Positions 12,426 to 57,941 of a DNA stretch of 64,000 nucleotides are shown in pieces. Numbering within the stretch: the first letter of the stretch is position 1; the number at the start of each line of letters is the position of its first letter. Both the position numbers and the translations under genes were made by a program. The stretch spans positions 55,000 to 118,999 of the forward strand of contig CAZJFL010000003.1 in assembly GCA_964545575.1 (NCBI GenBank). The letters run 5' to 3'. The notes beneath the pieces were generated by a model. It was not told the DNA's origin. It searched no databases and worked only from the letters and a program-made list of their open reading frames with translations. This stretch comes from an uncultured Planctomycetales bacterium. GTDB lineage: Bacteria > Omnitrophota > Gorgyraeia > Gygaellales > Profunditerraquicolaceae.

Positions 12426-13484
12426 TTAACAGTTTAAACCTTGCTTTATTTTTTTGGCAAAAATCCGGCTCTCGGGCTCGCAGGAGGTGAAGGTTTTATT
12501 GTAAAGCCATGCCCTCCCCGGGCACCATTTGCAGAAAGGCGCTAAATTGCATCTGTCGCATTTATAATTTTTATCTTGCTTAATTGAGGAAACCAGTCCT
12601 TTTAGCCTCTGCCAGGCATCTTTTAAAGAGGTCTTTAATATTTTGTATTTAGGAAAATCAATCATCAAGCACATTTTCAGTTCTCCAAAAGGATTAATTG
12701 CTGCCTGGCTTACTCCTACTGCGCATTTAAATAAATTATTGCTATCGGGTATTTGGTTTGTAGCCACTAAATCACACTCTTTAAAATTATCTTTTCTTAT
12801 GGCCTGCAACCTGTAGCCTGTAGCCTGTAGCTTATTTTTTAAACTTCCCCTATACCTAAATGGCTCTTTTGAACCATCTAGGCGTGGCGAAAGCCTGGTA
12901 TCCAGCCGATGTAGGGCGCCTAAGGATTCGGCAAAATCCTGGATATCCTCTATTTGGGCTTCGTTTTCTTTTAAAACACAGGTCTTAAAACCTAAATTGA
13001 CTTTATTTTTATGTAAAAGCCCGATTGCTTTAAAAACTTTTTTATATGAACCGGGAGAACAGGTTATCTTCTCAAAAGCGGCTTCAGTCATTGCCGGAAG
13101 GGTAATATCTACCTTGTTTGGTTTAAGCTGGGCTAATTCCCGGGCAATTATTTCATCGATTAAAGAGCCATTGCTATAAATGATGATTTCAACCCCTTTT
13201 TTCTTAGCATAGCAAAGGATCTGTATTATATCCTTTCTCATAAACGGTTCGCCGCCTGTAAAGCCCAAATAGAAGCAACCTATATCAGCCAGTTGATCAA
13301 GAATAGAAAATACCTCTTTAGTCTTAAGTTCTCTTTTTTCTCTAAAACTTTCCGGGACATAACAGTGCCTGCATTTAAAATTACATCTATAGGTTAACTC
13401 GAACATCACCCTTAAGAGAGAACCTTTTTCCTTTGCGCTCTTATGTATCTGTTGCCAGAACTTATTGTAGGCCCTAGTCTGCAT
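12426..13484 (-). CDS. Radical SAM/SPASM-domain peptide-modifying enzyme
   Basis: 352 aa. CX3CX2C (YRCNFKCRHCY) near the N-terminus; C-terminal SPASM Cys cluster (CDRCNLAPFCKWCPGRAW). Confidence 0.8.
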   Translation of the reverse strand: MQTRAYNKFWQQIHKSAKEKGSLLRVMFELTYRCNFKCRHCYVPESFREKRELKTKEVFSILDQLADIGCFYLGFTGGEPFMRKDIIQILCYAKKKGVEIIIYSNGSLIDEIIARELAQLKPNKVDITLPAMTEAAFEKITCSPGSYKKVFKAIGLLHKNKVNLGFKTCVLKENEAQIEDIQDFAESLGALHRLDTRLSPRLDGSKEPFRYRGSLKNKLQATGYRLQAIRKDNFKECDLVATNQIPDSNNLFKCAVGVSQAAINPFGELKMCLMIDFPKYKILKTSLKDAWQRLKGLVSSIKQDKNYKCDRCNLAPFCKWCPGRAWLYNKTFTSCEPESRIFAKKIKQGLNC

Positions 13485-13485
13485 C

Positions 13486-14586
13486 TTAACCGCCTAAACG
13501 CTTTCTCTCTGCTAAGGTGGCTTTAGCCAAATCGCAATAATAAGTTACCGGGGATTCCTCATCCCCGGTTTCTAAGAAAGCCCTGGCTGGGCAGTTATAG
13601 CAGAGCGGCCTTAAAGAACAGAGCCGGCATTTAGATTCGGTTTTAAATTTCTCCTTTAAGATTCCGGGAAAGACGCGGTAAAAGCCTTCTTTAAAGGGAG
13701 TTTCTTTTAAATCCACGCTGAATTTTTCAGAAAACATGCAAAACTTCAATTTTCCATAGGGATTGATAAAGAAATACTTCTTCCAGATATTGCAACGGTA
13801 AAGAAAATCTTTATTTCTGCTTAAATCCGGAAAATCGCTCTTTAAACGCCGCTGGTATTCTTCCCAGATTTGGGGGTCTTGTCTTCTTGCCTCTTTTAGC
13901 TCGGAAAAATTAAGTCTAAAATTTGTGGGGGCTATGTCTCCATTCAGCCGGGGGTAAATCATCGGGTCATATTTGAAATGGTATCTATTTTTGGAAGGCC
14001 CCCCCCAAAGTTGTTCGGTCCATTGTTTTATGCTTCCCAGCTCGTCTTTATTCTGCTTAAGGCAGTTTGTCTTCACTATCAAGGGTATTTTACTTTCTGC
14101 CAAAAATTTAATATTCTTTATTGCCTTTGAAAAAGAACCCCCTACCCGGCTTATCTTTTCATAGGTATCTTTGGTTATCCCGTTTAAAGTGACCTCGATG
14201 GACAGGGGCGGAGATTTTATCAAATAATCAAAAATCTCTTTGCTGAATAGCTGCGCATTAGTAAAAATGGTTACAAGAAAACCTTTTTCTTTGGCAAAGG
14301 AATAAAGCTCTAGAAAATCATCCCTGATTAAGGGATCCCCTCCGGTAAAGGTAACCCATAGACAACCCTCTTTTTTAATCTCGTTTAAAATTTTCTTCCA
14401 ATCTTGAGTGGTTAATTCCTGGTTTGAGGTTTTGCGGTATTTTTGCGGTATTGCGCTATTTTTACAGTAGCAATGGATACAGTTAAGGCTGCAATTGTAG
14501 GTAAGCTCGATTGTGCCGCTTAAGGGGAATTGCCCTTTTTTAATCCTAAGCCGCTGATAAAAAGGGCCTAATCTTCGCTCTTGCAT
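13486..14586 (-). CDS. Radical SAM/SPASM-domain peptide-modifying enzyme (second paralog)
   Basis: 366 aa. CX3CX2C (YNCSLNCIHCY); C-terminal SPASM (CRLCSLRPLCYNCPARAF). Confidence 0.8.
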   Translation of the reverse strand: MQERRLGPFYQRLRIKKGQFPLSGTIELTYNCSLNCIHCYCKNSAIPQKYRKTSNQELTTQDWKKILNEIKKEGCLWVTFTGGDPLIRDDFLELYSFAKEKGFLVTIFTNAQLFSKEIFDYLIKSPPLSIEVTLNGITKDTYEKISRVGGSFSKAIKNIKFLAESKIPLIVKTNCLKQNKDELGSIKQWTEQLWGGPSKNRYHFKYDPMIYPRLNGDIAPTNFRLNFSELKEARRQDPQIWEEYQRRLKSDFPDLSRNKDFLYRCNIWKKYFFINPYGKLKFCMFSEKFSVDLKETPFKEGFYRVFPGILKEKFKTESKCRLCSLRPLCYNCPARAFLETGDEESPVTYYCDLAKATLAERKRLGG

Positions 14587-14589
14587 AAA

Positions 14590-14850
14590 TTAAGATTGCC
14601 CTTCGGCCGAGTAAGGAGTCTGTCCTGCTGGATAGATACCAGGAGGAAACTCGCAAACCCCCTCACCCAGCATCTCTTTTGTAGCGACCTCAGTCCAGCA
14701 AATATTATCTGGGGGTGGAGGGGTATTAGCTAGATGTGCTGTTGTCCATGCCACACCAAACTCAAAACAGTTACAAGACAGCACTGCCTGCTCGGGGTTT
14801 AATTTTATCCGGCTAATCACCGGCCTAAACTTTGGTTTTCTCGTCTTCAT
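14590..14850 (-). CDS. Small Cys/Trp/Pro-containing protein; candidate precursor peptide of the radical SAM cassette
   Basis: 86 aa: MKTRKPKFRPVISRIKLNPEQAVLSCNCFEFGVAWTTAHLANTPPPPDNICWTEVATKEMLGEGVCEFPPGIYPAGQTPYSAEGQS. Its start overlaps the PqqD stop (ATGA) and is preceded by GGAGGTAAA. It has four Cys and lies immediately before the two rSAM/SPASM genes. Confidence 0.4.
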   Translation of the reverse strand: MKTRKPKFRPVISRIKLNPEQAVLSCNCFEFGVAWTTAHLANTPPPPDNICWTEVATKEMLGEGVCEFPPGIYPAGQTPYSAEGQS

Positions 14851-15137
14851 TTTACCTCCTCTATTGCCTTTATCTTCCTTAAATCTTCCAGCAGCACCTG
14901 CAATTTTTTGTCTGTTTCTTCTTCTGTGGTATCAAACTTTTTTAAAATCGCTTTTCTAATATCTTTTAGGGTTCTTTTTCCATCAATTAAATCCCAGATC
15001 TTTAAGGCAGCCTTATTTAGGGTATAAATATAATTTGCTTCCTCGGATGTCCTATAAATGGGTATCAGCATCGCTTGATCATCTATCTGGCGGCTGACTA
15101 TATCCGGGCTCTTCTTTAAAACTGCATCCTTTTTCAT
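14847..15137 (-). CDS. PqqD-family RiPP recognition element (RRE) / peptide chaperone
   Basis: 96 aa. Fits the PqqD family pattern (DQAMLIP...YTLNKAALKIWDLIDGKRTLKDI). SD AAGGAGG lies before the ATG. It is the first gene of the operon. Confidence 0.75.
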   Translation of the reverse strand: MKKDAVLKKSPDIVSRQIDDQAMLIPIYRTSEEANYIYTLNKAALKIWDLIDGKRTLKDIRKAILKKFDTTEEETDKKLQVLLEDLRKIKAIEEVK

Positions 15138-15358
15138 ACTTTGCCTCCTTGTAAATTCAATCGCAACAGTGTGCCCTGGCTATTGCTAGATGAGCGTCTA
15201 ACTATGCCTACAGGGGCAAGGCTATTATTAGGGAAAGCCTACTCTCATATTATCACAAGAGGAAATCAGAGACAACAGGTTTTCTTAAGACGGGGAATTT
15301 GTCTAGGTTTTATGTGGGTTTTGCGTTGGTTTGGGAATTGTCTGGGTTTTGGGTTTTG

Positions 15359-18300
15359 TTAACGCAGGTACCAGTGATCCTCATCGCCCACTAAAAGCTT
15401 ATATCCGGGAAATATTATTTTTGAATAGTCAGAACCGAGATCCATTCTGCTGTTAGCATCAAGGAAGCTAAAACCGACTCCGCTATAAACGTCGATCCTA
15501 GTGTTGTCAAAGATATCTGCGTCTAAGAAGGATATCAGCCCGCCGGCATGAAGATAGAGCCGGTCAATGGTAGTAATACCTACCGCCTCTAAGCTAATGC
15601 TACCAGCAGCATAAAGGGAAATCCAATCATGCGGACCAAAGGAAAAACCCCCTGTCAGAGTAATACTCCCTCCAGTAGAAGTAATAGCCAGTCCTTTGTT
15701 ACCTATAAAGTGGCTAAGGAAAGATGTATTGGCAGTAAGGCTATCTGCACTTTGGAGGTAGATGTAGGAAGAGGTAGCTGTGTTATTTAAAGTAAGGCTT
15801 CCTCCTCCGCTTTTATCATAATTCGCATAAAGATAGATCTTGTCGGCGGCTATACTTTGGTTTAAAGTAACGTCTCCGTAAGCAAGAATATAGATTGCTG
15901 TCAGCCCGGAGAGCTGCGAGTCAACAACAATGGTGCCAGCGGCAGCAGTAGAAGTAATGCCAAGCCCTCCGCTGTAATTGGATAAACGGGGAAGGAGTGC
16001 ACTTAAGGTAAATCCGGTCGGATTCGCACCTTGGAGGTAGATGTAGGGAGCGGTAACCATGATGGTCGGCGGTGTTATGAAAGTAAGGCTTCCAGAGCCC
16101 TTTTTATCATTATCCGCATAGAGATAGATCGCACCGTTTATTGTATCGTTTGTGCTAATAGTAGTCCTGTTTACAGTAAGAGTTCCGGCAGCAAAAAGGT
16201 AGACTCCATCATTTCGGGCAATGGGCGCAGATACCGTAATATCTCCGTTGGTAGAGCAAACACTTAAAACGCCGGTGTTGTTGATTAAAAAGCCAAGGAA
16301 AGCTGCATCGATGAACATAATTGCTGCCCCATCAGGCGCACTTTGGAGGTAGATCTTGGCAGCTTCTACATATTTATTATTTAAATTAAGGGCTCCCGAG
16401 CCATCTTTATCATTATCCGCAAGAAGATAGGCGCAGGGGGCTGTTATCGCTGTTGCCGACAGAGGATTTAAAGTAAGAATTCCAGCAGCATAAAGGTAGA
16501 TTCCCGTATTTCGGGAAATGGCCGTAGTTACCGTAATATCTCCCGTGGCAGCCACTTCTGCTTTAAGAGCGTTGATGCTTAAAACATCTGCGGCACCACC
16601 GGAATAGGCTAATTTGTTCAGGAAAGTCAAATCAATAGTAAAATTCTGCGCGCCTTGGAAGTAGATGTTGGCAGCATTGAAGGTGCCCAATGTATAAGAA
16701 ATCTGTCCCGATATAGCGCCAACACTATCCCCATACGCCGCATAGACGTAAATCTTGCCGCTCCCAGAGGTAACTGATAGGGCTACCGGACCACCTACCC
16801 CTACAGTAATATTTTCCGCACCATAAAGGTAGATTCCCTGAGTGCGGCTAATGTCAGTTGTTACCGTAATATTTCCGGCAGTAGAGGTGATGCTTAAGAG
16901 CTGGGTGTTACTGGTTAAAAAGCCGAGGAAACTTCCATCGATAGTAAAACTACCCGTACCTTGGAAGCCCGCACCTTGGAGGTAGGCGTAGGCAGCGTCA
17001 ATCTTTGTACCTACGCCCCCTATATAAAGTTGTCCTGCTTTATCTTTATCCTGATCCGCATAAAGGTAGACGTGGCCGCCGACTGCGTTGTCGCTGATTA
17101 TATCTGCATTTACAGTAATATCTCCAGTAGCATAAAGGTAGATATTATTTCGGCCACTAATGCGCGCACCTACAGCTACCGTAATATTTCCGTTGGTAGA
17201 GTAGAGACTTAAAACGCCGGTGTTGTTGATTAAAAAGCCAAGGAAACTTCCATCGATATTAAAAAGCTGCGCCTTTTTGAGATAGATGTTGGGAGAGTTG
17301 ATTAGTATGTTATTACTAAGGGTTCCTGTTTTATTTTGATCATAATCCGCATAAAGGTAGACCGCGCCGGTTGTTGCGGTAGAGGCGTTGGCCTGGGCCA
17401 CTGTAACATTATTATCAGCATAAACATAAATTTTACCTCCCGTTGCCGTAATAGTTCCACAGGTAATATTAAGTGAAGCATGAAGATTGACATCTTGGCC
17501 TCCGGTAATCACAGAAGACGCGCCGCCACCAATACAATAAATACTACCGCTTGCGGAAATATAAACTGAACCGGCGGCATTTAAATTATACGTTCCAGGC
17601 ACCCCCAGAATAACATTATGCCCAAAGATTTTTATATCGCCGGAAGTAGCAACGGTAATCGAGGTTCCGTTAGCCTGGGTAAAATCTCCGTCCCCGTTAT
17701 AATCTGAATCAGCCACAAAGATGAAATCAGTACCCGTGACAGTAATACTAGCATTCACATTTATATTGCGGGCGGCTTCTAAGGGACCAACGAGACCTAT
17801 CGGATTGCTAATAATGACGTCATAAAAGGGATGGCCACCAGGAGTGATGGTCGGGGTACTCCCGCCGTTAAAAGTGACAAGTGAGTTTCCAGGGTCAAAA
17901 GTAGCAGCTTCGCTTAAGGTAAAATTACCCCCCACGGATATGTTTGAGCTTTGGGCATTAAAAATAGCGCCGCTGTTTAAAATAAAACTACCACCCACGG
18001 CTAAAGTAAAAGATCCACAATTGACTTCTCCTGAATCTTGGCTATAAGGGCCGTTAATATTAAGGCCCCCCGCCAGGGTGATTGACCCTGAAAAACCACT
18101 TGTAATAATCAGGGAGTTAATCGTTAACCCTGGCATATTCATAATAGTATCGTCTGAGGTTGTATTAAAGATAATATCTTGGCCGTCAGGAGGTATCTGA
18201 GGATTCCAGTTAAGCGGATCTGACCAAAAAATGCCGTCGCCAGGCGGAAACCCCCCTGCCCCCACCCACTCCGGGTCTAAATGCCAGCCCACGATGCTGC

Positions 18301-19963
18301 CGTACTTTCCACCATGGACCACTTCAATAATCTCAGGGTTGAGGTTATGGCTATCCCGGACCAAGACCTCGTCAATATTATGGATATTGGAAGGTATGCT
18401 GATATACCAGGGTTTCCCGAGTTCGGAAGCATAAAGCTTGATTGTATCTGCGGGAGTGCCCTGGATAGTAGTTAAACCCTCAAAAGTATAGGTTTTTCCG
18501 GATTCAAAATAGATTTCCTTGCCCGGGATAGTGCAATTAAAGTTATAAAAGGTGATATTGCCGTATAAATAGGTAGGCTCCTGCCCTAAAAGAGTGACTT
18601 TATTCGCCTCTAAGGTAAGATTAGTATCTTTATTATAGATTATCGCGCCGAAGCCATCTGGCGGGCCGCGCAGCATAATACTGGTTCCGATTCCTAAACT
18701 ATCTAAGATATTAATATCTCCTTGAGTTCTGTTTATATAGATAAGCGCTGCATCTATCACTAAAGGCGCATCTATTGTTCCGAATTGCTTGGCAAATATT
18801 TTAACCTGATTGGCCTGAATAATTACCCCGGGAGCGGTGTTTATCGGAGGATCCCCTTCGTAAGTCACCGGGTCCTCGGGAAGGATGACTTCCACTTTCT
18901 CTGCATTAATGGTGATGAGCTTATCCGCCATGATCAAACCACCCTGTAAAAGGTTGACTGCCTGGATACTGATGAGATCATCAAAACCTTGGGAAGCTTG
19001 AGTGATTATATTGCCTTTATTAATGAAATCTGTACCTTGGGCGTTGACTTCTATCTTACCTGCTTCTAATCTGCCGCTATTAATTATGGGCGCACCCGCG
19101 GCTACCAGTTCAATTACGCCATTACGGTTAACCATATTATTTGCCTGAATTAAGCCCGTATTATTAATCGCATAATCAAAGACGCCATTTAAGACACTAG
19201 CCGTTAAAATAACTTTGCCGCCGTTGGCAGAGATTGTTCCTGAATTTTTAAGCGCAGAATCAAATCCGGAAATGGCTTCTTTTACCGGCCCGTCAACGAC
19301 TACCGAGATTGACCCTAAATTATCCAAAGCTAAGGTCATCTTCTCACCCGAAGCCAAAACCACCGTTCCTAAATCCGCCAGAATTAACCCTTGATTATCT
19401 ATTGCCCCGGATAAAAGGCAGATATATCCGCCCGGACTTCTGATTTGGCCCTGATTGACAATATAACCGTTTCCGGCACCCTTCTTGTAAAAATCATACT
19501 TACCATTTAAGAAATCATCATTAGAAATATCTAAGGTTGAAGCAAGTAATCCGGCAACATCTACCCTTGAATTTGGCCCGAATAAGATTCCGTTAGGATT
19601 AATAATAAAGATGCGTCCGGTAGCAGTTAAAATACCAAAGAGGCTGGAAGGATCAATACCCGTTACCCGGTTTAAGGCAATGCTTGAGGAAGAAGGCTGA
19701 ATAAAATGCACTGCTTCAGCTTGAGCAATAGAGAAACTGTTATAATTGACGATGAGTTTGTCTGAAGTGGTGCTGATAGTCAAGGTTTCTGCGCTTGTGC
19801 GGTCAAAAGTAGCCGAACCGCTGACTACGCTTTCGCCTTCAGGCAGACACCAAATAAATGAGGAACTGCCTAATACTATCAGGCTCGCCAAAATCAAAAT
19901 CAGAGAACCTTTAAAGAGGATTGTTTTTTTCATCTTCTTTTCCCTAATGGTAATGCCTATCAT
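15359..19963 (-). CDS. Large secreted exoprotein with filamentous-haemagglutinin-type TPS (two-partner secretion) N-terminal domain and beta-helical repeats
   Basis: 1534 aa with a signal peptide. The N-terminal domain has the haemagglutination-activity/TPS motifs (FIINPNGILFG, ALNRV). The body consists of about 7 repeats of ~95 aa (IDGSFLGFLxxNTxxLS..STxGNITV...GIYLYAAG) rich in G/N/T/S. Confidence 0.75.
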   Translation of the reverse strand: MIGITIREKKMKKTILFKGSLILILASLIVLGSSSFIWCLPEGESVVSGSATFDRTSAETLTISTTSDKLIVNYNSFSIAQAEAVHFIQPSSSSIALNRVTGIDPSSLFGILTATGRIFIINPNGILFGPNSRVDVAGLLASTLDISNDDFLNGKYDFYKKGAGNGYIVNQGQIRSPGGYICLLSGAIDNQGLILADLGTVVLASGEKMTLALDNLGSISVVVDGPVKEAISGFDSALKNSGTISANGGKVILTASVLNGVFDYAINNTGLIQANNMVNRNGVIELVAAGAPIINSGRLEAGKIEVNAQGTDFINKGNIITQASQGFDDLISIQAVNLLQGGLIMADKLITINAEKVEVILPEDPVTYEGDPPINTAPGVIIQANQVKIFAKQFGTIDAPLVIDAALIYINRTQGDINILDSLGIGTSIMLRGPPDGFGAIIYNKDTNLTLEANKVTLLGQEPTYLYGNITFYNFNCTIPGKEIYFESGKTYTFEGLTTIQGTPADTIKLYASELGKPWYISIPSNIHNIDEVLVRDSHNLNPEIIEVVHGGKYGSIVGWHLDPEWVGAGGFPPGDGIFWSDPLNWNPQIPPDGQDIIFNTTSDDTIMNMPGLTINSLIITSGFSGSITLAGGLNINGPYSQDSGEVNCGSFTLAVGGSFILNSGAIFNAQSSNISVGGNFTLSEAATFDPGNSLVTFNGGSTPTITPGGHPFYDVIISNPIGLVGPLEAARNINVNASITVTGTDFIFVADSDYNGDGDFTQANGTSITVATSGDIKIFGHNVILGVPGTYNLNAAGSVYISASGSIYCIGGGASSVITGGQDVNLHASLNITCGTITATGGKIYVYADNNVTVAQANASTATTGAVYLYADYDQNKTGTLSNNILINSPNIYLKKAQLFNIDGSFLGFLINNTGVLSLYSTNGNITVAVGARISGRNNIYLYATGDITVNADIISDNAVGGHVYLYADQDKDKAGQLYIGGVGTKIDAAYAYLQGAGFQGTGSFTIDGSFLGFLTSNTQLLSITSTAGNITVTTDISRTQGIYLYGAENITVGVGGPVALSVTSGSGKIYVYAAYGDSVGAISGQISYTLGTFNAANIYFQGAQNFTIDLTFLNKLAYSGGAADVLSINALKAEVAATGDITVTTAISRNTGIYLYAAGILTLNPLSATAITAPCAYLLADNDKDGSGALNLNNKYVEAAKIYLQSAPDGAAIMFIDAAFLGFLINNTGVLSVCSTNGDITVSAPIARNDGVYLFAAGTLTVNRTTISTNDTINGAIYLYADNDKKGSGSLTFITPPTIMVTAPYIYLQGANPTGFTLSALLPRLSNYSGGLGITSTAAAGTIVVDSQLSGLTAIYILAYGDVTLNQSIAADKIYLYANYDKSGGGSLTLNNTATSSYIYLQSADSLTANTSFLSHFIGNKGLAITSTGGSITLTGGFSFGPHDWISLYAAGSISLEAVGITTIDRLYLHAGGLISFLDADIFDNTRIDVYSGVGFSFLDANSRMDLGSDYSKIIFPGYKLLVGDEDHWYLR

Positions 19964-26422: not shown

Positions 26423-26936
26423 TTTTCAGTATACCCTCTAAATCTTGCGCTCTCTTTTTTACGGCATCTATCACTGCCCGGGAAGAAATCGTAGCTCCGG
26501 TAATGGCCTGCACTTCGCTTAAGCCCGGGATGTCTTTGCCGCTAAATTGAGCGGCAAATTTCGAATCCGCAACGTTAGCCCCCAGCCCCGGGGTTTCATT
26601 TTGGCTTAGTACCTTTATAGCGGTGATTTTTCCGTCCTTGGCCATGCCTACCATAGTCTCAACGATACTAGAATAGCCTTTACCCGCAGCCTTAAAAGCC
26701 AGGCCGATTAATTTTCCGTTTTTATCATGGGCCTTGTAATAAAGGATGTCGTTACCGGATTTTACGGCCTCAAAATGCTCGGCGAGGGGCATTACCTCTT
26801 TGAGGCTGGCCTCTTCCTCTGCCTCTGCCTGCGCAAGGATGCGGGATTTAGTCAAAACATTCACTCCTGCCAGAAGCCCGCTTGCCACCACGCAGATTAC
26901 CGCCAAGATAAAACCATAACGGATCATTTCTTTCAC
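26412..26936 (-). CDS. rnfG: Rnf complex subunit G (FMN-binding)
   Basis: 174 aa. One TM and an FMN_bind domain with the TGATISS covalent-FMN site. Confidence 0.8.
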   Translation of the reverse strand: MKEMIRYGFILAVICVVASGLLAGVNVLTKSRILAQAEAEEEASLKEVMPLAEHFEAVKSGNDILYYKAHDKNGKLIGLAFKAAGKGYSSIVETMVGMAKDGKITAIKVLSQNETPGLGANVADSKFAAQFSGKDIPGLSEVQAITGATISSRAVIDAVKKRAQDLEGILKNAK

Positions 26937-28192
26937 TTTCCCGCCTCCAGCTTTGCTCTTTTAATGGATTGAACCAGCTTTCTATTTGCCGGACAGACAT
27001 AGTCGCACAAACCGCATTCAATACAATCCAGGGCGCCGTAATTTTTTGCCTGCGGCCAAAGCCATTTTTCAGAGGCTAGATTAATCAGGCAAGGCATCAG
27101 CCCCACCGGGCATTCCCGCACACAGGCTCCGCAGCGAATGCAGAATTCTTCCTCTTTTTCTTGGGCTTCTTTTTTGTTTAATAAAATCACGCCCCCGGTG
27201 GATTTTATCGCCGGGACTTCATCGGTATACTGGGCGATACCCATCATCGGGCCGCCGATAATAATTTTTACCGGCTCTTCTTTTAAGGGGCCGCAAAAGG
27301 CGATTAAATCTTTGACCGGGGTACCCAAACGCACCAATAAATTTCTGGGGTTGGCGATACAACTTCCGGTTACGGTAACTACGCGTTCATATAAGGGCTT
27401 ATTCTTATAAACTGCTTCGTAAATGGCAAAAACCGTAGCCACGTTTTGCACCACTGCCCCGACATCAAAAGGTAATTTTCCCGAAGGAACTTCCCTCTTG
27501 AGGATTTTCTTAATCAGCTGCTTTTCCCCTCCCTGCGGATAAGCACTTTTTAGGACCTTTACCCTGAACCCTGAACCCTGAACCCTGAATTTTTCTATCG
27601 CCTGCGGTTTATTATCCTCTATGACAATATAAATAAACTTTGCCTTTAAACATTTTGCGACAAGTTCGATGCCGGAAAAAATTTCTTCTGTCTTCTCAAG
27701 CATCAACCGGTAATCGCTGGTCAGATACGGCTCGCATTCTGCGCCGTTGATGATTAAACTATCTACCGGCTTCGGAGGGTTAAGTTTAACCTGGGTGGGA
27801 AAACAGGCACCACCCATGCCGACTATACCTGCCTCGCGGATGATCTTGCGGATTTGCTCAGGGCTCTGGGCGGGAAGCTCGGCGCCAGGAGCTAAGAGTT
27901 TATCCTCTCCGTCATTTTCAATCACTATCGCCTTACATCTGCCTAAAACCGGATGCGGCCAATCCTGGATAGCCGTAACTTTTCCGGATAGCGAAGCATG
28001 GATAGGCGCAGAAATATTGGCTTCGACACTAGCGATCTGCTGGCCAAGAGACACTATATCCCCGACATTTACCAGCGGTAAACAGGCCTTACCCATATGC
28101 TGCACCAAGGGTAAATAAACCTTAGGCGGTAAAGGAAATTTTTCAATAGGCTTATCTAAACTTAGGTGTTTCTGCTCTTCTAGTCTAACCAT
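26933..28192 (-). CDS. rnfC: Rnf complex subunit C
   Basis: 419 aa. NADH-binding region and two C-terminal 4Fe-4S motifs (CIRCGACVRECP, CIECGLCDYVCP). Contains an in-frame heptamer repeat at 27561-27588. Confidence 0.85.
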   Translation of the reverse strand: MVRLEEQKHLSLDKPIEKFPLPPKVYLPLVQHMGKACLPLVNVGDIVSLGQQIASVEANISAPIHASLSGKVTAIQDWPHPVLGRCKAIVIENDGEDKLLAPGAELPAQSPEQIRKIIREAGIVGMGGACFPTQVKLNPPKPVDSLIINGAECEPYLTSDYRLMLEKTEEIFSGIELVAKCLKAKFIYIVIEDNKPQAIEKFRVQGSGFRVKVLKSAYPQGGEKQLIKKILKREVPSGKLPFDVGAVVQNVATVFAIYEAVYKNKPLYERVVTVTGSCIANPRNLLVRLGTPVKDLIAFCGPLKEEPVKIIIGGPMMGIAQYTDEVPAIKSTGGVILLNKKEAQEKEEEFCIRCGACVRECPVGLMPCLINLASEKWLWPQAKNYGALDCIECGLCDYVCPANRKLVQSIKRAKLEAGK

Positions 28193-50933: not shown

Positions 50934-50934
50934 A

Positions 50935-51864
50935 CTATCCACCTCCTTCTGTGTTCGGCCTGCTCTTCCAGCGCCGATGAATCCAGCTCCATTCCGCCGG
51001 ATAGCGCCGGATGTAAGATTCAATGATATCGGTGAGCTTCTGAATATTGATCTGCACAAACTCTTGGCGCATCTTTCCTTCCGCCAGATTAAAAGGCGGC
51101 TCAAAGATAATTTTATGGGTATCGTCTTTCTGGCGCAGAATGAAGCAGGGTAATATAGGGGCGCCGGTACGCTGCGCCAGGACCACCGGCCCCGTAGCGG
51201 TAGCTGCTTTCTTGCCGAAAAAATCTACGAAGACGCCACCTGCTGAGCCGAAGTTCTGGTCGATAGGAATAAAGACTATTTCGCTGCCGCGCAATGACCT
51301 GATAGTCGCCTCGACGCAGGCGCGGCGCGGCTGGCTGTAGATAGTTTTTATGCCAAAGCGGGTACGCGCGCCCAAAAACATCTTTTCCGCGCGCTCATCG
51401 CGCATCGGCCGCATAATACCGGCGATTTTATATCCCTGGAGGCTTAGCTTCGACATCAGCAGAGGAAAATTACCAAAATGCGCGCTCACCAAAATCACGC
51501 CTTTGCCCTGGGATAGGGCGGCATCCAGGTTATCTTGGCCGGCTATCTGCACGCGTTTTTTTACTAGCGCCGGCTTATTTAAGAAATACATCATCTCCAT
51601 CCCGCCCTTGGCCATAAAAATAAAACTATCTCTGGCTATCCGTTCTATCTCCTCTTTCGACTTCTCGTTGCCGAAGGCAATACTTAAGCTTTCCAAGGCG
51701 GTCTTTCTCTGTTTGGCGGCGATACGGTAGCCTAGACGGGAGGCATTTTGCGCAAAAGCGTATACCCAACTTCTCGGAAGTATGCTGACCAGCAAAGCAG
51801 CAAAGTTTAAACCCAGCCACCCCAGGTAACGGCTGATGGCAAGGCGTATTTTTTTTGTATCCAT
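50935..51864 (-). CDS. LpxL/HtrB-family lipid A (Kdo2-lipid IVA) late acyltransferase
   Basis: 309 aa. N-terminal TM, acyltransferase HX4D-like region (VSAHFGNFPL), overall family pattern. Confidence 0.7.
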   Translation of the reverse strand: MDTKKIRLAISRYLGWLGLNFAALLVSILPRSWVYAFAQNASRLGYRIAAKQRKTALESLSIAFGNEKSKEEIERIARDSFIFMAKGGMEMMYFLNKPALVKKRVQIAGQDNLDAALSQGKGVILVSAHFGNFPLLMSKLSLQGYKIAGIMRPMRDERAEKMFLGARTRFGIKTIYSQPRRACVEATIRSLRGSEIVFIPIDQNFGSAGGVFVDFFGKKAATATGPVVLAQRTGAPILPCFILRQKDDTHKIIFEPPFNLAEGKMRQEFVQINIQKLTDIIESYIRRYPAEWSWIHRRWKSRPNTEGGG

Positions 51865-52353
51865 CTAAAGCTTATATCCTAACTGGCGTAAGAAATTTTT
51901 ACGCCAGGCGATATCCTCTGTAGATTCCAGCCCTTTGGGCTTTGCGCCGTCAATAACACCGAGGATGCCGCGGCCCATATCGGTCTCGGCAATAATCACT
52001 TCTACGGGGTTAGCAGAAGCACAGTAGATATTGCAGACCTCGGGTATATTTTTAAGCGCGTTTAAAATATTAATCGGGTAGGCATTCTTGATAAAGATGA
52101 TAAAGCTGTGTCCGGCCGCGATTTCTAAAGCGTTCTCCGCGGCTAACTTCTTAAACTCCCCATCATTGCCCTCCACTCTCACTTTGCAGGCTCCGGAAGA
52201 TTCCACAAACGCCAAACCGAACTGGATACCCGGGACATTGTTTACCAGCATTTCGTAGATATCTTCCACGGTCTTAATAAAGTGGCTCTGGCCCAATATA
52301 AAATTTACCTCGGCGGGCTTCTGAATTTTTACTACCTTTAACTCTACCGTCAC
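51865..52353 (-). CDS. Adenosine-specific-kinase-like (DUF355) protein
   Basis: 162 aa. The pattern GQSHFIKTVEDIYEMLVNNVPGIQFGLAFVESSG resembles the small archaeal/bacterial adenosine-kinase family. Confidence 0.35.
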   Translation of the reverse strand: MTVELKVVKIQKPAEVNFILGQSHFIKTVEDIYEMLVNNVPGIQFGLAFVESSGACKVRVEGNDGEFKKLAAENALEIAAGHSFIIFIKNAYPINILNALKNIPEVCNIYCASANPVEVIIAETDMGRGILGVIDGAKPKGLESTEDIAWRKNFLRQLGYKL

Positions 52354-52402
52354 TGTCCTCTCCTTCTTTTATATCTTAACATAAAACTTAAAGAGCATAC
52401 AA

Positions 52403-53770
52403 TTATTTCTTTAGGCTTATCTTTCGGAAAGCCGAGGTATTTACCGAAAACAGCGCAGCGTAGGTTTTGGCGCAGGCTAATACAAAATCCGGATCGCCCA
52501 AAACCCTAACCGGTACGGCCAAAACCAGCCAATCATCCCCTGACTCTACACGCAATCCTTGCGGCTCGACTAATTTATTCGCATCCCAGACCCTGATCTT
52601 TCTGCCCTTAAGAATAATGCGGATCTTAGACATGCTAGGAAACGGCTTCTTATAACTGTAGCCGAAAAGGTAAAATCCGAAGCTCATTTTGCTGCCGCGG
52701 ATCTGCATTTTATCTATGCGAATCAAAAGGGCATCCTCTTCTACCGAATAAGTAACTCTGCCTTGCCCCAAAGAAGAAGCACCCCCTTCTGCATCTGAAC
52801 CCGTGTACATAGCCGACTCTCCTAAAAATTCTTTCTGTTTTGGCTCTACGTCGGGGTAATCGCTGAATAATTCGTTCCTACGGGCAAAAGACAACAGGTA
52901 AAAGGCGCTGGATTCCGTCTGGCTTTTATACGAGAGGATTGCTTGATATTTATTATCTATTTGCGCCCCTGCCAGTTCTTGTTTAAACCAGTGTATGGAC
53001 GTATCCGCAAATTGTTCGGGCGGAATTAACGGTAATTCCGGATGATAGCGCCGGGGAAGAGGCCAGCCTACCCAGTGGACAAGATAAGGATAAATCTCGG
53101 GCCTTGGAATATCTTTATTCAGGTCAGCAAGGGCGACCTGCAAAAAGAGGTAGAGCGCTTTATGGTCGAGGTTCGCGTCAGCGGGGTGCGAGACAAAAAT
53201 CTTATTGGGCTGATACTCTCCAATGATGCTTTCCAAATCCGCCAGAATACTCTCTCCTTTATAGGGCGCGCCAAAAGAACGGTTTTCTCGGTAGGGGACG
53301 GAAGAGACGCGGGTCAGCATGGTCTTAAAGGGCGACACCTCTTGCCAATGTTTAGCGAATATGGCAAACGTCCCGGAATCCGGATACCCCAGAAAAATAA
53401 GGTTGTTTTCGCCTAAGCCCAATAGCTTCATCGCCTCTATCGCTTCTTTGCGGCGCACCTCCCCCAGATGGATAAATTCACTTTTTCTTAAGGGGATCCT
53501 TTTTTCGTAAACGATAAAAGCAAACTGATTATGCTCTCCGTTTGTAAGATAGACGACGCGTATGTTTGCTCCGCTATCGATGGCCTGCTGGATGATACCG
53601 GCGCAAGCGATTGTTTCGTCGTCGGGGTGGGGAACGAGGATAAGAATCCGGTCCTGTTTTTTAAAAAGGGGCAGATTGTCAATTTGGACACGGTCTGTTT
53701 GCGGATAGGCTAAAGCATAAAATAAGCACAGCCAAAGACAAACACAAAAAATCTTTTTCGTCATCGTCAA
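52403..53770 (-). CDS. Secreted PIG-L/LmbE-family N-acetylglucosaminyl deacetylase with C-terminal extension
   Basis: Signal peptide; LVPHPDDETIACAG motif. Confidence 0.7.
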   Translation of the reverse strand: MTMTKKIFCVCLWLCLFYALAYPQTDRVQIDNLPLFKKQDRILILVPHPDDETIACAGIIQQAIDSGANIRVVYLTNGEHNQFAFIVYEKRIPLRKSEFIHLGEVRRKEAIEAMKLLGLGENNLIFLGYPDSGTFAIFAKHWQEVSPFKTMLTRVSSVPYRENRSFGAPYKGESILADLESIIGEYQPNKIFVSHPADANLDHKALYLFLQVALADLNKDIPRPEIYPYLVHWVGWPLPRRYHPELPLIPPEQFADTSIHWFKQELAGAQIDNKYQAILSYKSQTESSAFYLLSFARRNELFSDYPDVEPKQKEFLGESAMYTGSDAEGGASSLGQGRVTYSVEEDALLIRIDKMQIRGSKMSFGFYLFGYSYKKPFPSMSKIRIILKGRKIRVWDANKLVEPQGLRVESGDDWLVLAVPVRVLGDPDFVLACAKTYAALFSVNTSAFRKISLKK

Positions 53771-53894
53771 AATCAGGATTGCGCTTCTTGCTTAAGGAAA
53801 TAATTTTATCATAAGCGCGGCCATAAATCAATACGTTCTGGAAGGAACAATAAAGCAGTTGAAATAAGGGTTAAATAAATATATAATTATTTAT

Positions 53895-54788
53895 ATGGCG
53901 AAGCCAATAGACGAACACTACAGAACAATCAGATATGTGCTGCTGGTGATCCTCCTCTTGAACTGGGCAGTAGCCGCGGCCAAGATCATCTACGGGCTCT
54001 TGACGCGCTGCGCCAGTATGACTGCCGACGGCTTCCACTCCCTTGCCGACGGCGCCTCCAATATCATCGGCCTGATAGGCATCGCCCTGGCCTGCCAACC
54101 TAAAGATACAGATCATCCCTACGGCCACAAGAAATACGAAACCTTATTCTCGCTTGTCATCGCAGCGCTCTTATTTGTGGTTTGTTTTAACCTCTTTAAG
54201 GAGGGTCTAAAACGCATCCTCCATCCGGTCATACCCGAAATCAATATCACGAGCTTTATAGTAATGTTAACTACGCTGGCGGTGAATATCTGGGTGATGA
54301 AATATGAATATACGAAAGGCAAAGCTCTGCAAAGTGACATCCTGATTTCCGATTCCATGCATACAAGAGCGGATATCTTTACTTCCCTGTCGGTTATCAT
54401 CGCGCTGGTCGCGGTAAAAATCGGCCTGCCAATCATCGACCCTATCGCCACAATCATGATTTCGCTGTTTATCGCCCATGCCGGCTGGCAGATCACCAAA
54501 GAAAGCTCTGCCGTCCTCTGCGACAGCGCAGCGATACTGGAAGATAAAAAAATAGTGGATATTGTCCTGGGGGTCAAAGGCGTGAAGACCTGCCATAAAA
54601 TACGCACGCGCGGAAGGCCAGATGATATCCATGTTGACTTACATGTGCAAGTCAATCCTGATATGCACGTAGATAATGCCCACCGGGTAAGCTATGCTAT
54701 CGAAGGCGCGATTAAGCAAAATATCCCTAACGTCACCGACGTCATCGTGCACATCGAGCCGCAGGAAAAAATTTCAAATTCCCCTTAG
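53895..54788 (+). CDS. Cation diffusion facilitator (CzcD/ZitB-like) metal efflux transporter
   Basis: 297 aa. HSLADGASN and DSMHTRAD metal-site motifs; 6 TM helices plus a cytoplasmic C-terminal domain. Confidence 0.85.
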   Translation: MAKPIDEHYRTIRYVLLVILLLNWAVAAAKIIYGLLTRCASMTADGFHSLADGASNIIGLIGIALACQPKDTDHPYGHKKYETLFSLVIAALLFVVCFNLFKEGLKRILHPVIPEINITSFIVMLTTLAVNIWVMKYEYTKGKALQSDILISDSMHTRADIFTSLSVIIALVAVKIGLPIIDPIATIMISLFIAHAGWQITKESSAVLCDSAAILEDKKIVDIVLGVKGVKTCHKIRTRGRPDDIHVDLHVQVNPDMHVDNAHRVSYAIEGAIKQNIPNVTDVIVHIEPQEKISNSP

Positions 54789-55919
54789 GATAAACCAAAG
54801 GCCGATGCTTGCCGCTATCCCCATAAACCCACCGAAATAAAACGGGGCGGCAGCACCCAGAAACTTCCAGAGTAACCCCGCCAATAATGAAGCGGGCAAT
54901 AATCCTATCCCGACAAAGGTAGCATGCAGGCCGATGGCAGTGGCGCGTAAATTAACCGGCGCCATATCTGTTACCAATGCCTTTTCTACGCCTTCGGTAA
55001 ATCCGATATACAACCCATAAACCCCGAATAAAACCCAGAACATATTTAAGGAATTATTCAGCGCAAACCCCAGATACACCAGCCCGTAGAAAAAATAACC
55101 CAAGACCAGGAGTTTCTTTCTGCCGATTCTATCGGAAATGCGGCTGGCCGGGTAGGCAACTGAAGCATAAACGGCATTATAAACCAGATAAAAGAGGATT
55201 ATCTGCGGGAGGGGGCTGCCCAGGTTTTTTGCGCGCAACAAGAGGAATTGGTTGGAAGAATTACCAAGCGTGAAGATAAAAGTAAAGATAAGGAAAAGTT
55301 TTAATCTTTTATCCAAGGCGCGCCACCTGAATTCTAATCTTTTAGAGAGGGCGGGCCTTTCTTGCGCCTTTTTTTCCCTGACAAAGAATAAAACCAGAAC
55401 TCCAAAAAATGCCGGAATAAGCGAGAATAAAAATACGTCTCTCAAAGGGCCCCTGAAACGGGTGACCAAAAAATAGGCTATGGCGACCCCTGCTGTCGCT
55501 CCCAAAGTATCCATGGCCCGATGCAGCCCAAAAGCAGCCCCGCGTTTTCCCTCTTTAGCGCTCTCTGCAATCAACGCATCCCGCGGAGCCGTGCGCACGC
55601 CTTTGCCGAAACGGTCGATTACCCTGCCGCATAAAACCATCCCCCAGCTCTGAGAAATATACAAAAATAATTTGCCGAGGGTAGAGCCGGTATAACCGAT
55701 TATAGTAAAAGGCTTCCTTAATTTTATCCTGTCGGAAAAATATCCTGAAAAAACCTTAAGCAGGCTGGCTAGGCTTTCGGCGATTCCTTCGATTAAACCC
55801 AGTATCGCCGGGCTGGCTCCGAGGACCGTGACTAAAAAAACCGGCAATATCGGATAGACCATTTCGCTGGAGATGTCGGTCAAGAGGCTGGTTATGCCGA
55901 GTAAAATAATATTGAACAT
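54774..55919 (-). CDS. MFS transporter
   Basis: 381 aa, 12 TM helices. Confidence 0.7.
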   Translation of the reverse strand: MFNIILLGITSLLTDISSEMVYPILPVFLVTVLGASPAILGLIEGIAESLASLLKVFSGYFSDRIKLRKPFTIIGYTGSTLGKLFLYISQSWGMVLCGRVIDRFGKGVRTAPRDALIAESAKEGKRGAAFGLHRAMDTLGATAGVAIAYFLVTRFRGPLRDVFLFSLIPAFFGVLVLFFVREKKAQERPALSKRLEFRWRALDKRLKLFLIFTFIFTLGNSSNQFLLLRAKNLGSPLPQIILFYLVYNAVYASVAYPASRISDRIGRKKLLVLGYFFYGLVYLGFALNNSLNMFWVLFGVYGLYIGFTEGVEKALVTDMAPVNLRATAIGLHATFVGIGLLPASLLAGLLWKFLGAAAPFYFGGFMGIAASIGLWFILRGI

Positions 55920-55920
55920 A

Positions 55921-56409
55921 TTATTCTAAATATTCCCGGGGGTCTTGGGGGATGCCGTTTTTTCTTACTTCAAAATGCAGGTGCGGCTGGATAGCGCGGT
56001 AATTGGCATTGCCGGTTTTGCCCACGCTTCCGATAAGCTCTCCCTGACGCACGAGCGCGTTTTTCTGCACGTAGATATCGGTAAGATGGCCGTAGATAGT
56101 AATCATGCTGCCGGGATGTTTGATCGCAATATAATTGCCCATCCCCTTACTGCTGGTGGCAGCGACCACTATCCCTGAGCGCGCCGCAAATACAGGCGAG
56201 CCGAGCGCAGCCAAGAGGTCGATACCCTGATGCAGCCTTCCTCCGCTACGCGGGCTACCGAATAAGCCATCTCCCATGGAATCGGAGCGGACAACCATCT
56301 TTACCTTGTATTCGATGGGAGAGAAAAAATAGCTTTTATCCAGGAAGTAAAGGCCGGCTACCAGATAAAACGGTAAAACTATCAGTAAAATTAATAATAT
56401 TTTTTTCAT
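55921..56409 (-). CDS. M23-family peptidase
   Basis: HQGIDL, GHLTDIYV, PHLHFEV motifs. Confidence 0.8.
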   Translation of the reverse strand: MKKILLILLIVLPFYLVAGLYFLDKSYFFSPIEYKVKMVVRSDSMGDGLFGSPRSGGRLHQGIDLLAALGSPVFAARSGIVVAATSSKGMGNYIAIKHPGSMITIYGHLTDIYVQKNALVRQGELIGSVGKTGNANYRAIQPHLHFEVRKNGIPQDPREYLE

Positions 56410-56411
56410 GC

Positions 56412-57941
56412 TTATTTTTTAAAACGCACTATTATAGCATAGAGAATAAAAATCAAACAAGCTAAAATGAAGATATCCCCATAGCACGTATAAAGCGAAC
56501 GATTCTCACCCGATACAAAAACATCCTCCGTTTTATAGCCACGAATAAATATGCTCCTTCCCCGGCAATCACTCGCCAAAGAAACGATTTTACCGGAAGG
56601 CAAAATAAAAGCGGAAACTCCGGTATTGGCGGCACGGATAAGATTGATGCGGTTTTCTACGGCCCTGAATACCGAAGCCTGGAGATGCTGTAAGGGCGCA
56701 GATGTTCTTTTGTACCAGGCATCATTAGTGATGTTGACCAAGAAGTCCGCCCCTCTCCTCCTGAATTCCCGGCTCAATTCGGGGAATAAGTCTTCGAAGC
56801 AAACCAAGACCGCAAACTTAAGCAGGAGCTGTGAACTTGACTCCGGAAGCTTAAAAATTGTATAATCTTTGCCGGGGGCGACTTCTCCGATAGGCACGAC
56901 AGTCTCTAGGAAACCGAATATATTTTTTAAGGGCACATATTCCCCGAAAGGAACCAGATGCAATTTATTATAGCGCCCTAGCAGCTCTCCCCGGGAGGAA
57001 ACCAGGAGCGCGCTATTGTAATAGGTGCCTCCTTGCGAGACGACCGCTCCGAAGAGCAGGGGCGTTTTAACGCTCTCTGCAAAGAGCTTTATTTTTTCAA
57101 AATATCGCGGTTCCTCCCCGATGATGGCAGGGCTGGCTGCCTCAGGCCAGACGATTAAATCCGGTTTTTCTTTGGCGGCCGAACTGCTTAAAGCAAAATA
57201 TTCGCCAAAGATAAAATCCTTAGCCTGCGTATCCCATTTTAGATTCTGGGGGATGTTAGCTTGGATTACGGATATTTTGGTTGAGAATTCATAGTTCTTA
57301 GTTTGTAGTAATTTGTAATAACCGTAAGTCAGAGAAATAATTAAACAAAAAATGGGCAATATATATATCTTTAGACTTTGAACCCTGAACTCTGAACGAC
57401 GAACTAATAAATAGCATGCTATATTGACTAACATAATCAAAAACGACACTCCCCAGGCTCCGGTAATATCGGCTATCTGAATCGCCGGCAAATTAAGGTA
57501 CTGGGAATAACCTAATAAGGCCCAAGGAAACCCGGTTAAGAGGTGGCTACGTAAATATTCCAATAAAACCCAGAGGGAAGGAAGCAATAGTAGGGAGTAG
57601 ATAGTAGGTAAGGTGTAGGAGACGGCCAGGCCGAAGAAACCGAAATATAAAGCAAGATATAAAATAAGCAGGATCGTGCCGGGTAAAGTTACGTGGATCA
57701 GCCAGTAAATAGTGCCACTCCAAAATATTACGCCCGTAAAATAGGAGAGTAAAAATGCCTGGGTTCTATTCTTGCCTTCTAACACAAAAAATAACGGCAC
57801 AAACCCAAACCACGCAAAAATCCAAAGATTAAAGTTCGGAAAAGAAAGGATAAGCAGAATTGAAGATAGGACGCATAAGAGCAATTGCTTGGCGATAGGC
57901 GATAGGCGATAGGCGCTATGCGAACTCATCTGCCGCAGCAC
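56412..57941 (-). CDS. lnt: Apolipoprotein N-acyltransferase
   Basis: 509 aa. N-terminal polytopic domain plus C-terminal nitrilase-like CN-hydrolase domain (VCFEDLFPE). Contains two in-frame heptamer repeat blocks. Confidence 0.85.

Follow-up and report, generated by a model that had tools for sequence, protein, structure and literature searches.

How do tandem repeats with a unit of seven nucleotides, a length that is not a multiple of three, come to lie in frame within several unrelated genes of one bacterium, and what holds them at those sites? The question is raised by a stretch of 64,000 nucleotides (hereafter, the window) from an uncultured Planctomycetales bacterium, which GTDB places in the Omnitrophota (GenBank assembly GCA_964545575.1, contig CAZJFL010000003.1, positions 55,000 to 118,999 of the forward strand). 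Here, heptamer arrays occupy a gene for a radical-SAM/SPASM enzyme (rSAM), the rnfC gene and, at two sites, the lnt gene. These arrays are periodic far beyond chance, differ between lineages by a quantum of 21 nt, leave seeds in short orthologues, change their units in concert, are concentrated in particular lineages and are stable within populations. They behave as, and qualify as, heptanucleotide simple-sequence repeats (SSRs). That slipped-strand mispairing produced them where they lie, starting from a local seed, and that the reading frame then filtered them is the explanation towards which we lean, with a confidence slightly better than even. Slippage would be the molecular mechanism, by analogy with a published experiment, and tolerance, rather than function, is probably what determines the sites.

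Heptamer arrays within genes of the window

The window, with a G+C content of about 45%, contains at least six period-7 arrays. Three of them include exact runs of 22-29 nt, namely CCTGTAG at 12810-12831 (22 nt) in the rSAM gene, ACCCTGA at 27561-27589 (29 nt) in rnfC and GGCGATA at 57891-57915 (25 nt) in lnt. When mismatches are tolerated, Tandem Repeats Finder (TRF) gives them extents of 12802-12831 (4.3 copies), 27561-27589 (4.1 copies) and 57891-57923 (4.7 copies). An initial annotation of this DNA had described four heptamer blocks in coding regions, and all four are confirmed, three as exact runs and one as a degenerate run of 31 nt. The latter, which had been placed at 57380-57404 in lnt, is real but weaker than described, with 17 of 24 lag-7 matches over 57374-57404. 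The host genes that had been named (rSAM, rnfC and lnt) and the peptides QATGYRL, FRVQGSGFRV, SEFRVQS and AYRLSPIA agree with our gene identities and in-frame translations.

Three exact runs of at least 21 nt in the window compare with one in total over 300 dinucleotide-preserving shuffles, and no exact run of at least 2.5 copies was found in the window for periods 8-12. Chance is thereby ruled out as the origin of the window arrays, and the proposition that such heptamer triplets might occur as often as expected by chance clearly fails, both against the shuffles and against the excess of period 7 over other periods. An assembly artefact is also ruled out, since ENA, JGI and Logan assemblies of different samples share identical arrays. 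Short units arranged head to tail over lengths beyond chance are what defines a microsatellite. The host genes of the coding arrays all lie on the minus strand, and the sense-strand units differ by site: GCTACAG in the rSAM gene, TTCAGGG in rnfC, GTTCNNN and CCTATCG in lnt, and GGGTTTA in an intergenic array described below.

The arrays are found in frame in loops, linkers or termini of their host proteins, as had been supposed from the sequence. In the rSAM gene (open reading frame, ORF, 12426-13484), five units on the minus strand (12797-12831, 21 of 28 lag-7 matches) read GCTACAG three times, GTTGCAG and GCCATAA in the sense direction, and encode LQATGYRLQAI in the linker joining the radical-SAM core to the C-terminal Cys-rich region. 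The rnfC array (27561-27589, minus strand; ORF 26933-28192) is a perfect array of 4.1 TTCAGGG units in the sense direction, and the residues it encodes (FRVQGSGFRV) run from the last part of a helix through a loop into the first residues of a beta-strand in the FMN-binding domain, as aligned to PDB 7zc6. The lnt gene (ORF 56412-57941) contains two arrays, both on the minus strand. The N-terminal one (57891-57923) has 4.7 units of CCTATCG in the sense direction, spans codons 6-16 and starts 3 nt past the stop codon of the overlapping secA gene. The degenerate one (57374-57404, 4.4 units; hereafter, site 2) reads GTTCGTC, GTTCAGA, GTTCAGG, GTTCAAA and GTC on the sense strand and encodes RRSEFRVQS, in the short loop between the final two membrane helices ahead of the nitrilase domain (by alignment with E. 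coli Lnt, 5n6h). Within 57926-57941, the stop codon of secA and the start codon of lnt share the sequence ATGA, and an alternative GTG start of lnt, 12 nt upstream, agrees with orthologue N-termini beginning with MLRQ.

Orthologous sites across the Omnitrophota

The comparison covered the rnfC loci of 16 Omnitrophota and 64 non-Omnitrophota species-representative genomes, those of 80 close Omnitrophota from metagenomes, and same-species contigs from further samples. The homologues of RnfC, Lnt and the rSAM protein belong overwhelmingly to Candidatus Omnitrophota. All four coding sites of the window are hot spots that hold arrays across much of this phylum, with units specific to each lineage. 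Therefore, the view that the repeats are recently acquired, fixed insertions has to be abandoned, as every site is an old one that has been occupied phylum-wide with a unit per lineage.

In the rnfC loop, between EDNKP and YPQGG, period-7 arrays end at the identical codon in more than 30 Omnitrophota loci. Their units are either of a TTC type (TTCAGGG in the window; TTCAGAG, TTCACAG, TTCATGG, TTCAAAG, TTCGAAA and TTCAGGC elsewhere) or of other types (TTACGAR, TACGCAA, TACGCCG, GAACTAC, GAGCTAA, GAGCTCC, GAACACC and GGGTACA). A period-14 variant is also present among the Omnitrophota loci, and one entire clade (FSKFSGIKVKVL) is without an array in this loop. The length of the loop changes in steps from 22 to 29 and from 24 to 31, and the same site contains 2.4 copies of TTACGAA in L121 and 5.6 units in L005. 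The EDNKP to YPQGG segment measures 31 aa in the window against 31-38 aa in other phyla, and is 3 aa shorter than in the RnfC of 7zc6; this alignment rejects a simple insertion relative to all orthologues in the case of rnfC. A second rnfC hot spot lies in the linker behind the N-terminal domain (units AGTCGTC, TCCAGCA, AGAACCG and GTCACCA), and the window has no array there.

At lnt site 2, orthologues encode SVIGYRLSVIG, SAVSCQLSAVS, VLGVRFWVLG and similar peptides, or are seven residues shorter. Perfect arrays occupy this site in other lineages, and the lengths of the region peak at 25, 32, 39 and 46 aa. The N-termini of Lnt orthologues are also periodic over seven residues with other units (SHIAYRISHIA, SVVSCQLSVV, VIGYRLSVIE, SSFVVRRSSFV and QLSAISFQLSA), or are devoid of the segment. 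One lnt gene, that of L172 (63% identity), contains five arrays: TCAGTTG (4.6 copies) at the N-terminus, ATCCAGC (4.7), TCGGTTA (4.6) at site 2, ACCTAAC (2.4) and CAAGCTC (4.9). A sixth array of this contig bridges the prfA stop and the secA start, which gives six different units within 6.8 kb (1045-1076 and 4019-5134). The seed of its site-2 unit, TCGGttaTCGG, falls inside the conserved membrane-helix codons for SVIG. The rSAM linker, in turn, has up to three seven-residue periods in orthologues, with differing units, and reaches 9.9 copies of CACGCTN in L171. A short rSAM orthologue, L173, reads GCTACAA, GCTACAA and G (GCTACAAGCTACAAG); its 2.1 units are exactly 21 nt less than the five units of the window. 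A sister species (87% aa identity) retains the same five units with the variant positions shuffled, and turnover of the rSAM array is slower than that of the rnfC array.

At three sites (the one in the rSAM gene and the two in lnt), array-bearing orthologues exceed array-free Omnitrophota orthologues by exactly seven codons, and the array-free forms retain a seed of one or two units. The suggestion that each block adds about seven codons to a linker therefore holds for these three sites and not for rnfC, where 31 aa compare with 31-38 aa. The extra block is not foreign DNA, because it consists of three more copies of a heptamer already present in the local coding sequence. It had been argued that only changes of three units would keep the frame, and the copy numbers do differ between lineages only in steps of three units, with in-frame states only among about 350 orthologues. 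Such whole-unit variation between relatives, here of exactly three units between orthologues, is again that of a microsatellite. The initial annotation had also considered that distant orthologues might share the same residues at these positions; the seven-residue periodicity is indeed present in them, but the residues themselves are not the same.

The units are replaced as wholes. The rnfC arrays of L098 and L104 differ in every unit (TTCAGGG against TTCAAAG/TTCATAG) between flanks that are 95.4% identical, and a like contrast (TTCAGGG-type against TTCAAAG/TTCATAG) separates L099 from L104 (flanks 92.4% identical). Between the window and L085 (flanks 89.7% identical), three of the seven unit positions differ, and do so in each copy. 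Purity reaches 100% in many arrays. This purity, together with a divergence faster than that of the flanks, indicates that the tracts are re-homogenised far faster than species diverge. Within the species, in contrast to these differences, arrays are identical in contigs from ENA, JGI and Logan (four for rnfC, two to four for lnt and five for the rSAM gene), and a single-nucleotide polymorphism (SNP) 10 nt from the rSAM array demonstrates that strain variation exists among these contigs.

The excess of period 7 is also visible in larger samples. Self-identity at lag 7 (at least four of seven residues) was detected in 27 of 120 Lnt, 17 of 112 RnfC and 25 of 117 rSAM proteins, compared with 0-6 at lags 5, 6, 8 and 9 in the same sets. 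For periods 7, 8 and 9, TRF (2.8 copies or more) counted 60, 11 and 5 arrays in 1.085 Mb of Omnitrophota DNA, and 14, 7 and 5 in 1.056 Mb from other phyla, the period-7 arrays of the latter being clustered in a few Bacteroidales loci. The rnfC gene itself accounts for 41 arrays in 124 kb; outside it, the flanks contain 4.2 arrays per 100 kb in lineages with an rnfC array versus 0.66 per 100 kb in lineages without one. Heptamer arrays thus extend beyond the Omnitrophota. In some Bacteroidales and one Bacillota (L065, L066, L076, L056 and L043), arrays of about 31 nt were seen at rnfC loci, and examples from outside the Omnitrophota include ATTGAAC (4.4 copies), AGGATTC (4.4 copies, encoding GFRIQDSGFRIQ) and one array of 137 nt. 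A few tandem arrays of period 8, 33-37 nt long, were also noted in the same Omnitrophota loci.

The 69 Omnitrophota arrays comprise 53 canonical units, and a G- or C-tract of at least three is present in only 8 of them. This diversity rejects a single mobile heptamer family and argues against any single mobile sequence or single binding site. Neither does any one heptamer unite the arrays of a genome, as the units of the window differ from each other and L172 has six. The length spectrum of period-7 arrays is bimodal, with a chance-like tail from 14 to about 24 nt, a sharp peak at 29-32 nt (about 4.4 units) that is present both inside and outside ORFs, and a few arrays at 53-69 nt; periods 6, 8 and 9 have no comparable peak. 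This mode, together with the arrays at stop/start junctions, corresponds to the roughly four units and the preference for gene junctions of dispersed heptamer families.

Non-coding arrays and hairpin modules

Outside the coding regions, the window contains an inverted pair of arrays that the initial annotation had overlooked. The arm at 63334-63366 consists of 4.7 copies of TAAACCC (minus strand, GGGTTTA); it is the 3' arm of a long hairpin and abuts the AUG of a 91-aa ORF of the MGMT type (MGMT DNA-binding domain; 63062-63334, minus strand). The 5' arm, at 63399-63463, has about 9.6 degenerate units that resemble AAATCCT on the minus strand. It overlaps the stop codon of uvrC, extends downstream of it and is roughly complementary to the first. 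The minus-strand RNA of 63320-63475 is predicted to fold into a long imperfect hairpin (-40.4 kcal/mol, z = -5.1), and none of 200 shuffles was equally stable. No intrinsic terminator was predicted at this array pair.

In related genomes, non-coding arrays are located at junctions of co-oriented genes, often as inverted pairs in which an array and its complement surround a short loop. In addition to the window pair, such pairs are built from GTCTATR (L096 and L130), AAAGTYA (L154) and AACCGAT (L018). The rnfD/rnfE junction is a hot spot (L096 4978-5047; L130 5742-5819; L104 5696-5725; L154 6943-6996), where inverted pairs of lineage-specific units fill the short spacer and both arms change their unit together across lineages. 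In the window, rnfD and rnfE overlap and no array is found at their junction.

Some arrays contain, in addition, a dispersed 21-nt GC-rich palindrome, CCTGCCTG..CAGGCAGG, of related Omnitrophota (L086 4081; L093 2670; L109 960; L145 1979 and 2321; L115 3144; L009 3206; L018 12776). About 9 of its 16 copies are within heptamer arrays, even though arrays represent only about 0.2% of the DNA surveyed for it, and the arrays are thus preferred landing sites of this module. It is found in coding as well as non-coding arrays, and is in frame when coding (CLSGRQA or LPVRQAG). One copy outside the arrays is flanked by GATAAGC and GATAAGA, and a search of the window for CCTGCC..GGCAGG retrieved zero copies of the module. 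Longer or double hairpins also occur in arrays of related genomes. The rnfC loops of L098 and L099, with flanks that are 94.6% identical, differ by a 48-nt insert with a double GC hairpin in the middle of a TTCAGGG array, which is a recent event. Heptamers of the cyanobacterial STRR families, with units reportedly fixed in heterocystous cyanobacteria, are likewise said to occur with hairpin modules of 21-27 nt (SDR) that insert precisely, including into genes. Similar GC hairpin modules break a tRNA-like 5' half (GTAGCTCAGTTGG) in L088 (about 3700-3760) and L136 (about 5130-5200), just upstream of a called tRNA-Thr. The identity of this sequence as a tRNA was rejected, as ARAGORN makes no call for it in either contig.

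Origin of the arrays and their relation to known repeats

The slippage explanation would operate as follows. A seed of one or two heptamer copies, plus a few bases repeating the start of the unit, would allow the nascent strand to pair with a shift of one unit during replication, and the tract would grow. Within genes, only differences of three units (21 nt, seven codons) would keep the frame, seven not being a multiple of three, so that the visible states would be the seed and the seed with three, six or nine further units. From four units upwards, a tract could gain or lose three units in a single slip, without passing through a frameshifted intermediate. Slips, together with out-of-register pairing and correction, would homogenise the units, i.e., would lead to concerted evolution; whole units could drift between lineages, with the array fixed at the same codon, because slips keep homogenising them. 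Arrays would survive where seven extra residues are harmless, in surface loops, interdomain linkers, N-termini and gene junctions, and the same few sites would be occupied across the phylum because indels of seven residues are tolerated only there.

There is a published analogue for these steps. In the pflu0185 gene of P. fluorescens, a seed GGTGcccGGTG went from one to two copies, with loss of the frame, and then to four, with its restoration, by slipped-strand mispairing; the frame was also restored by contraction, and rates were orders of magnitude higher at higher copy numbers (bioRxiv 10.1101/2024.05.01.592015). Heptanucleotides are, moreover, described as the most abundant class of long SSRs in many prokaryotes, for which polymerase slippage was proposed (Mrazek et al., 2007, as presented in PMC4679880). 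The seeds, the concerted change and this analogue point to a shared slipped-strand process, one of the possibilities raised by the initial annotation, as the best explanation.

Several observations weigh against slippage as a sufficient explanation. The 29-32-nt mode also exists outside ORFs, where 14 of 21 large arrays measure 29-31 nt; the reading frame cannot explain this, and lengths would be expected to scatter more widely if tracts there were free to slip by one unit in either direction. The rule of four units, which holds for such arrays and for units lacking G-tracts alike, is not accounted for by slippage. The long state outnumbers the short one (at lnt site 2, the 32-aa form in 46 proteins and the 25-aa form in 7), and contraction greatly exceeded expansion (86 vs. 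3) in the P. fluorescens tract (bioRxiv 10.1101/2024.05.01.592015), a bias from which neutral slippage alone predicts mostly short forms. For essential genes such as lnt, a rise from 1.x to 4.x units would call either for an intermediate with a shifted frame or for a burst of several units at once, and neither was observed; nor was there any sign of variation in the assemblies, as no within-species copy-number variant was found in five to six independent consensus assemblies. Finally, the arms of inverted pairs co-vary in their unit, which needs selection for pairing or a templated process. These points leave room for a different reading, to which we give a low but appreciable probability, in which four-unit arrays are a class of self-renewing elements of about 30 nt. 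They would be made or kept by a specific process, either replication or repair in a 7-nt register that adds 21 nt or a selected, sequence-independent role of RNA or DNA, and would be coupled to the 21-nt GC-hairpin modules that insert into them preferentially; a single cause other than G-quadruplexes would then underlie the four-unit rule of Xanthomonas, Geobacter and Nostoc. A doubling model (from one to two, four and eight units) was also considered. The ABAB patterns of units (L104, L085 and L006), the non-coding arrays of 7.6-9.6 units and the published step from two to four agree with it, but it is not separable from conversion within arrays.

Other explanations invoke selection for a function of the DNA or RNA. 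The arrays could be cis-acting nucleic-acid elements of about 30 nt (four heptamers), functioning on mRNA or DNA, e.g., by controlling translation or processing where genes meet, by forming the arms of long hairpins or by staying unstructured, with sites kept by selection and coding copies tolerated in frame. This is a tentative alternative that we consider rather unlikely, yet several observations speak for it: the 29-32-nt architecture common to ORF and non-ORF arrays, the strong folding of inverted pairs and the persistence of arrays at orthologous sites despite at least 35% protein divergence, with the long state predominating. It also agrees with the many arrays at stop/start junctions or first codons (the lnt N-terminus; prfA/secA in L172; rnfD/rnfE in L096, L104, L130 and L154; 63334-63463 in the window) and with reports from other bacteria. 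Xanthomonas GGGAATC repeats favour four units and lie between aligned ORFs (PMC4692102), Nostoc heptamers occur in three to four copies near start codons and their deletion alters reporter activity (bioRxiv 10.1101/2022.06.06.494920), and Beggiatoaceae TAACTGA repeats are located just upstream of start codons (PMC4679880). However, 53 units in 69 arrays exclude a sequence-specific binder, and a reader of bare periodicity is not known. Many arrays are, in addition, deep within ORFs (the rnfC loop, and five sites in the one lnt gene of L172), and whole lineages without arrays there or elsewhere keep the genes. A narrower version, that these are regulatory repeats forming G-quadruplexes as in Xanthomonas and Nostoc, would derive the four units from the need for four G-tracts, and G-quadruplex formation was proposed for the four-unit preference published for GGGAATC (PMC4692102). 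The sense strand of the window rnfC array (GGGTTCAGGGTTCAGGGTTCAGGG; 27562-27585, minus strand) is a perfect G3N4 x4 and the sole canonical motif (G3N1-7 x4) in the 64-kb window, and the intergenic array has two GGG tracts in its GGGTTTA-type units. Among the window arrays, only that of rnfC has four tracts of at least three G, and 61 of the 69 arrays overall have no such tracts. G-quadruplexes are impossible for the coding arrays GCTACAG, CCTATCG and GTTCNNN of the window and for the orthologous rnfC arrays TTCATGG, TACGCAA and GAGCTAA. Since the four-unit mode is general, and includes units without G-tracts, G-quadruplexes are not its general cause, and we consider them very improbable as the explanation of the arrays.

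Still other readings place the cause in a mobile element, in switching of the host genes or in the encoded peptides. A small mobile element, e.g., the 21-nt GC-rich hairpin module, could have left target-site duplications or footprints by inserting and excising repeatedly. The enrichment of this module within arrays, the insert that distinguishes L098 from L099 and the near-identical flanks of the copy outside arrays speak for such an origin, which is nonetheless improbable: the window has its arrays and no copy of the module, lineages differ by steps of three units instead of one-unit increments, and neither a transposase nor terminal inverted repeats nor a consistent target site came to light. 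With no terminal inverted repeats, the coding arrays do not match a transposon footprint or a miniature inverted-repeat transposable element. The cut-and-paste footprint suggested by the initial annotation finds no support either: each site has its own unit, this unit runs on from the conserved codons around it, and the seed is present in short orthologues (2.1 units in L173). Contingency loci, in which copy number switches the host genes on and off by phase variation, are conceivable because a change of one unit would frameshift these genes, and heptanucleotide repeats do switch hmw1A of Haemophilus influenzae and the evolved pflu0185 of P. fluorescens. Here, however, the hosts are housekeeping genes (rnfC, lnt and the gene of an rSAM maturase), the copy number is identical in the independent assemblies despite a nearby SNP, and the orthologues contain in-frame states only. 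Frame switching within populations was not seen at the resolution of consensus assemblies, and this possibility has very little to recommend it. Equally hard to credit is selection of the seven-residue peptide itself, as a protein repeat with a structural or functional role. The in-frame location of the arrays speaks for it, as do recurring residues, with [FY]-x-[VL] at the beta-strand start in rnfC and YRL in three window arrays, but the repetition is perfect at the level of DNA, including synonymous positions, the same architecture is present outside ORFs, and the peptides vary freely between lineages.

Although heptanucleotide repeats have been known for decades, and from several bacterial phyla, there is no agreement on how they arise or what they do. 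As in the survey of long SSRs by Mrazek, Guo and Shah (2007), to the extent that it is presented in PMC4679880, units of 7 nt are over-represented in some lineages, and slippage was proposed there. As related in the same source, coding units were expected in multiples of three, whereas here 7-nt units form in-frame blocks of 21 nt, and the survey did not cover the Omnitrophota, in which orthologous hot spots with turnover of units are now apparent. The pflu0185 tract shares with our arrays a heptamer plus a 4-nt microhomology in the seed (compare TCGGttaTCGG in L172 lnt) and in-frame states at one and four copies (bioRxiv 10.1101/2024.05.01.592015). In contrast to that laboratory-evolved switch with its rapid copy changes, the Omnitrophota copies are stable within species and the genes are on. 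The GGGAATC/GGGGAYT repeats of Xanthomonas and Nostoc are similar in their location between co-oriented ORFs near stop and start codons and in their inverted pairs (PMC4692102), but the units described here are arbitrary (8 of 69 with G- or C-tracts) and many of the arrays lie in coding sequence. Geobacter metallireducens also has four tandem heptanucleotides, some of them inside genes, although these form a family of 49 copies with one consensus, GGACCGG, read as regulatory RNA elements (PMC2700814), in place of a unit for each site. The Beggiatoaceae TAACTGA repeats occur in sets of two to six copies, mostly just upstream of start codons, and a few are in frame in peripheral or variable regions, e.g., LSVINYQLS in an RpoC-like loop; unlike our arrays, they have one unit genome-wide and across phyla, their forward copies stop translation in three frames, and occupation of orthologous sites with changing units was not shown for them (PMC4679880).

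The Omnitrophota arrays thus lack the defining trait of the known heptamer families, one conserved unit per genome. Within the searchable literature, we found neither published heptamer arrays in Omnitrophota nor published orthologous in-frame hot spots with turnover of units. Arrays at the same codon whose units change in concert provide a natural system for concerted evolution and for the 21-nt frame filter in essential genes, and a mode of four units (about 30 nt) with arbitrary units means that the G-quadruplex explanation put forward for Xanthomonas is not the general cause. For annotation, indels of seven residues in Omnitrophota RnfC, Lnt and rSAM maturases are driven by repeats and should not be taken for functional motifs. 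If the arrays are merely tolerated products of slippage, they are a modest piece of the natural history of these genomes.

Two minor observations concern the surroundings of the rSAM gene. A possible decayed array, of uncertain membership in this class and also overlooked initially, lies at 15300-15358, just 3' of the stop codon of a 1534-aa ORF with a TPS domain (two-partner-secretion type). Its units are GGGTTTT-like (CAAAACC on the minus strand), with 25 of 52 lag-7 matches; the tract is G/T-rich, and on the mRNA strand C-rich and G-poor, and TRF reports 2.3 copies of TGGGTTT at 15343-15358. The rSAM gene itself is surrounded, at 8084-14586, by a cluster resembling those for ribosomally synthesized and post-translationally modified peptides, with two radical-SAM enzymes, a ScmC-like protein and an ABC transporter, and the same-species contig L174 has a gene of the PqqD family upstream.

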